A stretch of DNA of 15,677 bases from a virus. This document shows positions 10,664 through 12,185 of this stretch, piece by piece. The stretch lies in UHGV virus genome UHGV-1824706; one strand, given 5' to 3'. A program made the translations under genes and the position numbers. Position 1 is the first letter of the stretch, and the number at the start of each line of letters is the position of its first letter. Under the pieces are notes generated by a model. It was not told the DNA's origin. It saw only the letters and a program-made list of their open reading frames with translations, and did not search any database.

Positions 10664-11371
10664 ATGGATTTGAATAAATTCGATGAGCCATTCAGCCCTG
10701 AAGATATCGAATGGCGAATACAGCAAAGCGGTAAAACACGCGATGGCAAGGTGTGGGCTATGGTGCTGGCTTATGTCACGAACAGGGCAATCATGAAACG
10801 CCTGGACGATGTTTGCGGCAAAGCAGGATGGCGCAATGAATACCGCGATATTCCCAACAACGGCGGCGTTGAATGCGGCATATCGATAAAGATTGATTCC
10901 GAATGGGTAACCAAATGGGATGCTGCTGAAAACACGCAGGTAGAAGCCGTCAAAGGTGGTCGTTCCGGTGCAATGAAGCGCGCTGCCGTTCAGTGGGGAA
11001 TCGGTCGGTATCTGTATAACCTTGAGGAAGGTTTCGCACAAACATCTCTCGATAAAAAGCAGGGGTGGCACAGGGCAAAACTGAAGGATGGAACAGGATT
11101 TTACTGGCTCCCTCCATCGCTGCCGGGATGGGCAATCCCAGCATCAGATAACAAACCATCACCAGAAAATACCAACCAGAAATCTCCATCGGTTGACTGC
11201 GAACAAATCCTGAAAGACTTCAGCGATTATGCATCAACAGAAACTGACAAGAAAAAACTCATAGAACGTTATCAGCATGACTGGCAATTAATGGCTGGCA
11301 ATGAGGATGCGCAGGCTAAATGCGTTCAGGTAATGAACATCAGAGTTAACGAACTAAAACAGGCGGCATAA
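10664..11371 (+). CDS. Rad52/Sak-type single-strand annealing protein (phage recombinase), 235 aa
   Basis: KGGRSGAMKRAAVQWGIGRYLYNL resembles the Rad52-family annealing signature; sits immediately upstream of ssb; SD GAGGTGA. Confidence 0.65.
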   Translation: MDLNKFDEPFSPEDIEWRIQQSGKTRDGKVWAMVLAYVTNRAIMKRLDDVCGKAGWRNEYRDIPNNGGVECGISIKIDSEWVTKWDAAENTQVEAVKGGRSGAMKRAAVQWGIGRYLYNLEEGFAQTSLDKKQGWHRAKLKDGTGFYWLPPSLPGWAIPASDNKPSPENTNQKSPSVDCEQILKDFSDYASTETDKKKLIERYQHDWQLMAGNEDAQAKCVQVMNIRVNELKQAA

Positions 11372-11878
11372 ATGGCAAGCAGAGGCGTAAATAAGGTGAT
11401 TATCCTTGGTCGGGTAGGACAAGACCCGGAAGTTCGATACTCACCATCAGGAACAGCGTTCGCCAACCTGACAATAGCCACGTCAGAACAATGGCGAGAT
11501 AAAAATACTGGCGAGCAAAAGGAATTAACTGAATGGCATCGTGTTGCTGTATCCGGGAAACTGGCTGAGGTCGTGGGGCAGTATGTGAAAAAAGGTGATC
11601 AGATTTATTTCGAGGGAATGCTGAGAACCAGAAAGTGGAAAGACCAGTCAGGGCAAGACCGTTACACAACCGAGGTTCATGTCGGAATTAATGGCGTGAT
11701 GCAAATGCTTGGCGGCATTGGCGACAGCAAACAACAAGCAGCCAGCAGGCAATCACAGAAGCCACAGCAGCAATCATCACCAGCACAACACAACGAACCT
11801 CCGATGGATTTTGACGACGATATACCCTTTGCACCAGTAACTCTCCCCTTCCCTCGTCACGCTATTCACGCAATTTAA
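11372..11878 (+). CDS. ssb: Single-stranded DNA-binding protein (SSB) with an atypical 15-residue C-terminal extension
   Basis: OB-fold N-terminus [23 protein letters not shown], Gln/Ser-rich linker, acidic tail [11 protein letters not shown] followed by [15 protein letters not shown] before the stop. Confidence 0.85.
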
Positions 11879-11891
11879 TCAGGAGAAAATC

Positions 11892-12185
11892 ATGCCAGCG
11901 CCTCTGTATGGTGCGGATGACCCGCGCCGCTGTTCCGGCAATTCCGTATCGGAGGTGCTGGATAAATTCAGAAAAAACTACGATCGAATAATGTCTCTAC
12001 CGCAGGAAACGAAAGAGGAAAAGGAATTTCGCCACTGTATATGGCTTGCAGAGAAAGAAGAACGCGAGCGAATTTACCAGACATCAATCCGACCATTCCG
12101 CAAAGCCACATATACCCACTTCCCTGAAATTGACCCGCGCCTGCGTAATTACCGCTCACGCTATGGCGCTATCAGTAATGACTGA
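11892..12185 (+). CDS. Hypothetical protein (97 aa)
   Basis: ATG with SD AGGAG; charged and basic; no recognised motif. Confidence 0.45.

Follow-up and report, generated by a model that had tools for sequence, protein, structure and literature searches.

The free C-terminal Phe of the acidic tip of SSB is regarded as a universal docking point for more than 12 genome-maintenance proteins, and a phage ssb gene whose reading frame continues past this residue therefore raises the question of whether its product is damaged or has been selected in this form. Such a gene is present in the window, by which we mean the whole 15,677-nucleotide stretch of virus genome UHGV-1824706 that was analyzed. The open reading frame at 11372..11878 on the + strand encodes an SSB of 168 amino acids and is intact, with a TAA stop codon at 11876-11878, which bears out an earlier note, made from the sequence alone, that the frame runs 15 residues beyond DDDIPF before the stop. 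The note placed the start of this feature at 11821, one base ahead of the Ile151 codon (11822), and its description was otherwise accurate. It offered two explanations: either a lost stop (read-through) or a sequencing error has left the SSB defective, or the variant is real and its partner interactions are modified.

In its OB fold and acidic tip the protein does not depart from the SSB family; the one deviation lies in the terminal Phe. It belongs to PF00436 (Pfam, E=1.6e-36 over residues 6-104) and matches the PHROG profile phrog_44 (E=1.6e-66). The OB-fold ssDNA-binding and tetramerisation domain (residues 6-104, 11387..11683, +) is supported by both the Pfam match and the AF2 model, in which OB-type strands are predicted with a pLDDT of 83-92 over residues 11-100. 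An intrinsically disordered linker, rich in Q, P and S and of variable length among homologues, follows (residues ~117-142, 11720..11797, +) and leads into the canonical acidic tip ending in D-D-D-I-P-F (residues 143-153, 11798..11830, +), so that residues 117-153 have the linker-to-tip organization of the family. The tip is internal here instead of C-terminal: the Phe153 codon (11828-11830) is succeeded by a 15-residue tail (residues 154-168, 11831..11875, +), and the linker, tip and tail are all disordered in the AF2 monomer (pLDDT ~30). In comparison with the chromosomal SSB of E. coli, the window protein thus shares a tetramer-type OB-fold N-terminal domain, a disordered Q/P-rich linker and an identical acidic tip, but its Phe has 15 residues after it, and the terminal Phe with a free alpha-carboxylate, which RecO uses, is absent.

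The gene is an intact temperate-phage ssb within a PL recombination module. It is preceded by a gene for a Rad52/Rad22-family single-strand annealing protein (10664..11371, +; PF04098, E=5e-26), the stop codon of which adjoins the ssb start codon, and is followed, 13 nt past the ssb stop, by abc2 (anti-RecBCD protein 2; 11892..12185, +; PF11043, E=6e-64), a gene that is also annotated as abc2 in related phages. The three genes are co-oriented, tightly packed and located downstream of cIII/kil, as in the PL recombination modules of lambdoid/P22-like phages, and the order annealase-ssb-abc2 is common to the window, HK75, mEp235, epsilon34 and Sf6.

The same protein, or the same junction between tip and tail, was found in many independent sources. 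Isolated coliphages HK75 and mEp235 encode an SSB identical to all 168 amino acids of the window protein, the ssb of Salmonella phage epsilon34 has the same tail at 89% DNA identity to the window, and the tail is also found in the isolated phages mEpX2 and g341c. In ECP1 and several E. coli prophages it is attached to a different ssb core (~76% DNA identity). Using an 89-nt probe across the tip/tail junction (coverage of at least 80%), we detected the fused junction in 297 of 5426 complete E. coli genomes. A homologue search with the whole protein, in which presence of the tail was not required, returned extended SSBs that are 66-90% identical to the window protein in Klebsiella, Citrobacter, Enterobacter, Kluyvera, Pluralibacter, Phytobacter and Salmonella, and a tail of exactly 15 amino acids is attached to SSBs in this range of identity in at least eight enterobacterial genera. 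Of the matches, 38 bearing the extension were aligned (alignment A1), and none of these has a stop after IPF; relatives ending at IPF were matched by the same search as well (e.g. P0085, P0090).

These observations leave a negligible probability for the proposal that a lost stop, or an error of sequencing or assembly, produced a defective SSB in a decaying prophage: housekeeping SSBs do end at IPF, prophages do decay, and rare singleton deletions fusing ssb to an adjacent HNH gene exist (P0011, P0014), but the identical protein is made by isolated phages, the junction is present in 297 complete genomes, and the same 15-residue tail is kept from genus to genus while its codons diverge synonymously. 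HK75, mEp235, mEpX2, epsilon34, g341c and ECP1, isolated plaque-forming phages, encode close homologues with the extension, and the sequence recurs in hundreds of genomes from independent assemblies; the earlier note's suspicion of a defect or a sequencing error is contradicted by both, and its alternative of a real variant is strongly supported by the gapless tail shared across genera under purifying selection. A run of 15 open codons following a lost stop is not unusual by chance, and it is the conservation of these codons that exceeds chance.

The expectation that SSBs end exactly at IPF likewise holds for housekeeping SSBs and fails as a general rule for those of mobile elements, among which tips with residues after the Phe appear, from the sequence surveys that follow, to be a broad class. 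A tblastn search with tip plus tail matched 178 phage records, including phages of Vibrio, Hafnia and Klebsiella, and 110 plasmid records, of which 77 were conjugative. The SSB of the IncN plasmid pNDM-ECS01 ends in the same tip-plus-tail module and has a convergent SprT gene as its neighbor. In Vequintavirinae phages of ~148 kb, a 393-413-amino acid phrog_4477 protein ends either in tip plus tail or in ...APIGLQYARHAIHAI; a Pfam SSB domain was not found in these proteins, and their gene adjoins tail-fibre genes. Among the matches listed for GTDB species representatives, the DNA pattern for DDDIPF-AP was widespread, compared to a chance estimate of <1. Tails of 14-15 residues of the APIGLQYP... 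type were found, among the matches listed, in Proteus, Providencia, Vibrio, Pseudoalteromonas and Rheinheimera; the GTDB matches listed also included APLHHLAGA and APISRLLLNII in Pseudomonas, APEWR in Rhizobiales, and others in other groups. Searching IMG/VR for FDDDIPF plus a further codon whose first letter is not T, a pattern that leaves out stop codons and does not impose AP, we found that 78 of 120 extended ends among the matches listed go on with AP, with other families in that set reading xDPYRGARSLLI or consisting of a single extra Asn. Tails outside Enterobacterales, Vibrio and Alteromonadales (e.g. APLHHLAGA, APEWR) may not be homologous to the window tail. Representative loci for extended SSBs proved to be recombination modules of prophages that contain integrases and an annealase of the Rad52-like, RecT or Sak4/AAA_24 type, and across them the type of tail tracks the host taxon, not the annealase family or the SSB core, a pattern that could merely reflect shared phage gene pools.

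Within alignment A1 the tail is gapless, with 15 residues in 38 of 38 extended SSBs, and only the linker varies in length. Pro155 and Leu158 are invariant, and Phe160, Arg162, His163, Ala167 and Ile168 are conserved in at least 90% of the sequences, alongside invariant tip residues Pro143, Pro144, Phe147, Asp148, Pro152 and Phe153. The variants among homologues are conservative and can be summarized by the consensus [AS]-P-[VILA]-[TG]-L-[PQT]-[FY]-x-[RKS]-H-x-[IVM]-[HY]-x-[ILV]. The tail DNA is almost invariant in E. coli and Salmonella phages, and the selection signal comes from other genera, in which codons 3-15 of the tail in species-representative genomes were compared with the window as reference. 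Against a Pseudescherichia locus (L120) there were 7 synonymous and 1 non-synonymous differences (binomial P=6e-4), and against L229 there were 6 and 0, as counted from the sequences; pN/pS ranged from 0.05 to 0.26 in Lelliottia, Atlantibacter, Enterobacter, Kluyvera and Buttiauxella. Seven distinct DNA sequences, that of L229 among them, encode the exact tail peptide of the window. The peptide is shown to belong to the SSB and not to a neighboring gene, and to be under purifying selection on differing OB cores, beside annealases of three families, on the SSB of an IncN plasmid and on an unrelated protein of large virulent phages, and we hold with high confidence that the tail is a genuine, selected C-terminal module.

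Conservation of the segment as DNA, e.g. as a mosaic linker or homing target for the exchange of lambdoid modules that is translated only incidentally, would account for some of the same data. Its 45 nt have 0-1 substitutions among 13 E. coli, Shigella and Salmonella loci while the flanks diverge, and stay near-invariant in E. coli and Salmonella phages despite ssb cores that differ by up to 24%; moreover, the segment joins either ssb or the HNH gene to either abc2 or an exonuclease gene, with the junction exactly at its TAA. Recombination or homing, instead of selection, could explain this near-invariance. As the main explanation we nevertheless consider conservation at the DNA level very unlikely, given that other genera diverge freely at synonymous sites while keeping the peptide, and that the tail also occurs amid unrelated neighbors, i.e. 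the SprT gene of the IncN plasmid and the tail-fibre genes of Vequintavirinae. No promoter-like or terminator-like site was found in the tail DNA, and its RNA folded no better than shuffled sequences (z=0.27), which rules out the DNA- or RNA-level elements that were considered. Roles as peptide and as DNA are compatible, and homing or recombination probably homogenizes the segment in E. coli phages.

With no signal of this kind in the nucleic acid, and with a pLDDT of ~30 that rules out a folded domain or a segment docked on the OB fold in the AF2 monomer, though contacts with another subunit or a partner may still form, the tail looks like a short linear motif instead of a domain. One candidate for the partner of such a motif is a single host hub, e.g. 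the beta sliding clamp. The clamp-binding hexapeptide QLxLx[LF] (also QL[SD]LF) is loosely resembled by P-[VI]-[TG]-L-[PQ]-[FY], and a disordered C-terminal motif with conserved Leu and aromatic positions would suit docking of this sort. The Gln that defines the hexapeptide is, however, replaced by the invariant Pro155 in the tail, conservation reaches well past the hexapeptide, and the tails of Pseudomonas and Rhizobiales do not fit, all of which makes a clamp-docking peptide a very improbable explanation.

The boundary between the Phe and Ala codons, at 11830..11831 (+) in the window, holds a free-standing HNH-like endonuclease gene in some phages and none in others, and the window carries the unoccupied allele. 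In Sf6, which has the same PL module order as the window, with the same Rad52-like annealase and abc2, ssb ends in DDSDIPF-stop and is followed by gp26 (159 amino acids), whereas the window ssb is continuous and its site is empty. The last 14 residues of Sf6 gp26 are the last 14 of the window tail, and the same 45 nt encode both. The Sf6 GenBank annotation already remarks '14 contiguous amino acids identical to ... SSB'; this was the only prior notice of the shared tail that we found in the open-access literature, and no description of the tail motif or of capped or extended SSB tips was found in open-access full texts. A stop directly after IPF, a ribosome-binding site and then an HNH ORF reading into tail codons that end in [HY]AI are present in Sf6 and five further loci (L007, L009-L012). 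The cassette between the Phe and Ala codons measures 444-447 nt (447 nt in Sf6) and is in frame. A second type of endonuclease (P0022), 47% identical to gp26, occupies the same position behind a window-type ssb core, and both occupied and empty alleles are known for window-type as well as Sf6-type cores. The type-1 cassette (HNH1) is carried by ~98 complete E. coli genomes, versus the 297 with the empty, fused junction. In the occupied alleles the insertion supplies the stop directly after IPF, and its ORF takes over the orphaned tail codons.

The gp26-like proteins have an invariant Cys/His pattern and match phrog_2340 ('endonuclease'); no Pfam match was found, and their top fold matches are HNH/beta-beta-alpha-Me nucleases, none of them significant in Foldseek. 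On this modest evidence, the gene at the junction probably encodes a nuclease of the HNH/beta-beta-alpha-Me type. Between the window ssb and an HNH2-occupied allele (L010), 10 of 459 nt differ, and 8 of these 10 differences fall at ssb positions 432-456, within the 28 nt that precede the insertion point. Differences cluster beside the insertion point in the same way for the Sf6-type core (L006 compared with Sf6). The stretch that is recoded in occupied alleles corresponds to 11803..11827 (+) in the window and would be both a tract of co-conversion and a portion of the endonuclease target. Homing endonuclease genes leave just such a trace, a short recoded flank next to a cassette that some alleles have and others lack at one fixed position, and the HNH-like gene is thus a putative homing endonuclease gene. 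Free-standing phage HNH homing endonuclease genes are known, e.g. the mob genes of T4, and share the fixed-site polymorphism and the short recoded flank in near-identical alleles; unlike them, the cassette lies inside the 3' coding end of its host gene, truncates ssb and borrows its last 14 codons.

The opposite polarity was also considered, namely that ssb with an IPF-stop followed by HNH is ancestral, and that an in-frame deletion of 444 nt of HNH fused its last 14 codons to ssb, with harmless spread thereafter. In its favor, an HNH gene is found behind ssb in several lineages distant from one another, ERF-type phages of Cronobacter among them, the indel is in frame, deletions in this region do occur (as in P0011 and P0014), and the HNH2 cassette is similar at its 5' end to the spacer between ssb and abc2. 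The tail, however, lies outside the endonuclease family: the phrog_2340 profile covers the protein only to residue ~143, ahead of the tail, and endonuclease relatives in other genera end in ...KPIYPxE plus 2-12 unrelated residues. Model confidence for the HNH protein is ~52 in the tail versus 98 in the remainder, and the tail is far commoner on SSBs (in many genera, the IncN plasmid and Vequintavirinae) than behind HNH genes. Behind the HNH gene of L015 it is recognizable as ITPPFPRHSIHAL but out of frame through a 2-nt insertion, a frameshift never seen on the SSBs of alignment A1, and the recoded tract beside the cassette fits gain by homing. A deletion scar of a gp26-like gene, which was set aside as the main model after the diverged SSBs with the tail, the profile end, L015 and the recoded flank, is thus quite improbable, and because the profile ends before the tail, the tail is wider spread on SSBs, it has decayed behind HNH in L015 and the flank is recoded, we take the endonuclease gene to be the insertion and the tail to be part of ssb.

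What the tail might do is suggested by published work on SSBs with blocked tips. An SSB carrying a C-terminal GFP neither bound ExoI nor supported chi-dependent strand-displacement synthesis, and was dominant-negative when expressed from a plasmid (Dubiel et al., NAR 2020, PMC7293020), and Arg132 of RecO anchors the carboxyl end of the SSB tip (PMC3152348). As in the engineered SSB-C-term-GFP (PMC7293020), the polypeptide of the window SSB continues beyond the tip, but the cap there is an artificial folded domain of 27 kDa and here a natural, conserved and disordered 15-mer, which may act differently. All tail families share a single property, the loss of the terminal position by the Phe, and the most economical reading is therefore that SSBs of mobile elements are capped. 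The canonical tip binds ExoI, RecQ, chi, PriA, RecO and other partners, and a capped tip would dock poorly with them. A phage SSB of this kind would cover and shield the ssDNA and recombination intermediates of the phage but would not bring in nucleases and helicases of the host, which would suit a gene placed between an annealase and an anti-RecBCD gene. The modified partner interactions that the earlier note raised are thus what we infer from the work on capped SSBs, and we put the mechanism of capping and partner rewiring at a little short of an even chance. Taken together, a conserved and selected tail on an intact phage SSB, a polymorphic endonuclease site and capping as its conjectured consequence form the best overall explanation, and one that we find likely.

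The enterobacterial tail has further conserved positions, which point to a second contact of a specific kind; its conserved hydrophobic and basic residues probably form a linear motif for a second partner. Because tail type tracks host taxon instead of annealase type, this partner would most likely be a host protein. The HK620 SSB is a precedent for a functional link to an annealase, its C-terminal residues coupling it functionally to the cognate Sak4 (Hutinet et al. 2018, PMC5928155). It resembles the window protein as a temperate-phage SSB encoded beside an annealase and abc2, but is distant and ends at an aromatic residue (NDYPPF-COOH) without a cap. A motif for the cognate annealase is unlikely for the window tail, the same type of tail being found with annealases of the Rad52-like, RecT and Sak4 kinds as well as on the SSB of a plasmid and in virulent phages. 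Whatever the contact, Sf6 and other endonuclease-occupied phages are viable with an IPF-ending SSB and the same annealase (L006 compared with L007), so the tail is dispensable, at least for phage viability.

A C-terminal tag for degradation or remodeling, e.g. by ClpXP, which would make the SSB of a mobile element short-lived or removable, is an improbable alternative to a capping tail. ClpX recognizes the C-terminal ..LAA of ssrA and RRKKAI of MuA, and the tail families do finish their disordered chain with small or aliphatic residues (..HAIHAI, ..HLAGA, ..SLLI, ..WRAM). Degron rules are, however, conserved in Proteobacteria, which leaves both the lineage specificity of the tails and the conservation of Pro155, Leu158, Phe160, Arg162 and His163 unexplained, and the APEWR tails of Rhizobiales end in Arg. 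A processed pro-peptide is a further alternative.

The phage SSB of T7, gp2.5, has a C-terminal Phe that is essential for partner interactions, and differs from the window SSB in that its tail sequence is unrelated and its Phe is terminal. A paper on a T4SS-translocated plasmid SSB makes no mention of a C-terminal signal in SSB. A wider proposal, which we think doubtful, is that mobile elements across Proteobacteria, among them temperate phages, large virulent phages and some conjugative plasmids, cap the SSB tip in lineage-specific ways and so rewire the host SSB interactome, with a homing HNH gene switching between capped and uncapped forms. The cap would then deny host nucleases and helicases the ssDNA of the element, or would poison mixed tetramers, the tail motif would recruit a chosen host factor, and spread of HNH at the tip/tail boundary would switch the SSBs of enterobacterial phages between the capped and uncapped states.

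If capping is true, mobile elements would separate the coating of ssDNA by SSB from the recruitment of host enzymes, and this would also account for phage SSBs paired with annealases perhaps behaving unlike the host protein when used in recombineering tools. One and the same SSB exists in a capped and an uncapped allele that differ just by the endonuclease insertion; such pairs constitute a natural reagent and could show which contacts with the host promote phage recombination, conjugation and recombineering and which impair them. The insertion itself is a case of a selfish gene cutting its host gene short at a functional boundary and using the final codons as its own. Annotators should not mark the tail extension as a frameshift or as a sign of a pseudogene. 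The endonuclease gene of the HNH type, for its part, is currently unannotated in RefSeq E. coli genomes.

The module formed by the acidic DDDIPF tip and the tail that follows it was also found at the end of a larger protein of virulent phages, namely the phrog_4477 proteins, whose C-terminus consists of an 11-residue tip followed by APIGLPYGRNFIHCI or APIGLQYARHAIHAI, the same module that closes the SSB of the window. Both the phrog_4477 protein of Cronobacter phage GAP31_233 (locus L137, 900-2081) and that of Acinetobacter phage ABPH49 (AXN57958; locus L138, 840-2081) end in this way. In the large, virulent Vequintavirinae phages these proteins measure 393-413 aa and have no assigned function, and a Pfam search with the Vequintavirinae phrog_4477 protein gave no match. 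The protein may be an ssDNA-binding protein that has so far been overlooked, or may mimic the SSB tip. Plasmids carry the module as well, with 110 plasmid records matching tip and tail, 77 of them conjugative (e.g., the IncN plasmid pNDM-ECS01, where the SSB with a capped tip lies at 2006-2539 of locus L136). Neighbors of the capped SSB gene on pNDM-ECS01 include anti-restriction genes (ArdR, antirestriction protein) and a gene for a SprT-like protease.

The 3' end of ssb also marks differences in gene content. Some loci have a gene for a 182-aa Rv2179c-like 3'-5' exonuclease that separates the ssb tail from abc2 (3016-3564 in L002 and L003, 3472-4020 in L007), and others, the window among them, do not (compared position, 11879-11891). 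Since the exonuclease junction falls precisely on the TAA of the tail, the tail is the left boundary of this second cassette polymorphism too. The Sf6 gp26-like endonuclease gene, present in about 98 complete E. coli genomes, had no annotated feature at any match in the RefSeq/PGAP E. coli records listed (H70-H84). At its 5' end the type-2 HNH cassette reads TAATCATTGGGAGAAAATATG (L009, 2983-3003), similar to the ssb-abc2 spacer, TAATCAGGAGAAAATCATG (window 11876-11894), a sequence likeness that may be a vestige of cassette assembly. The same E. coli prophage (L009) carries a second, unrelated endonuclease gene of the HNH_3 type (PF13392) at 2060-2527, between the Rad52-like gene and ssb, which overlaps the start of ssb, whose initial codons are recoded (differences at positions 4-16).

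Two E. coli prophage proteins, P0011 and P0014, are in-frame ssb-HNH deletion fusions in which the OB fold runs into the endonuclease's C-terminal half; the join in P0014 falls at an IVG common to both partners. Both fusions are rare decay products, distinct from the widespread tip-tail junction. A Salmonella protein representing a 588-sequence cluster (P0078) has a tail that stops three residues earlier than usual, and this shortening may be common among some Salmonella prophages. Among the matches listed from GTDB species genomes (L016-L135) and IMG/VR (L139-L258), several seemingly independent families of short tails follow DDDIPF, i.e., APLHHLAGA and APISRLLLNII in Pseudomonas, APEWR in Rhizobiales and APHFDGQF in Psychrobacter, with xDPYRGARSLLI, ..GAGVSWRAM and one extra Asn as further endings. 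In one Rheinheimera locus (L049), a second capped SSB end lies 550 nt from the first.
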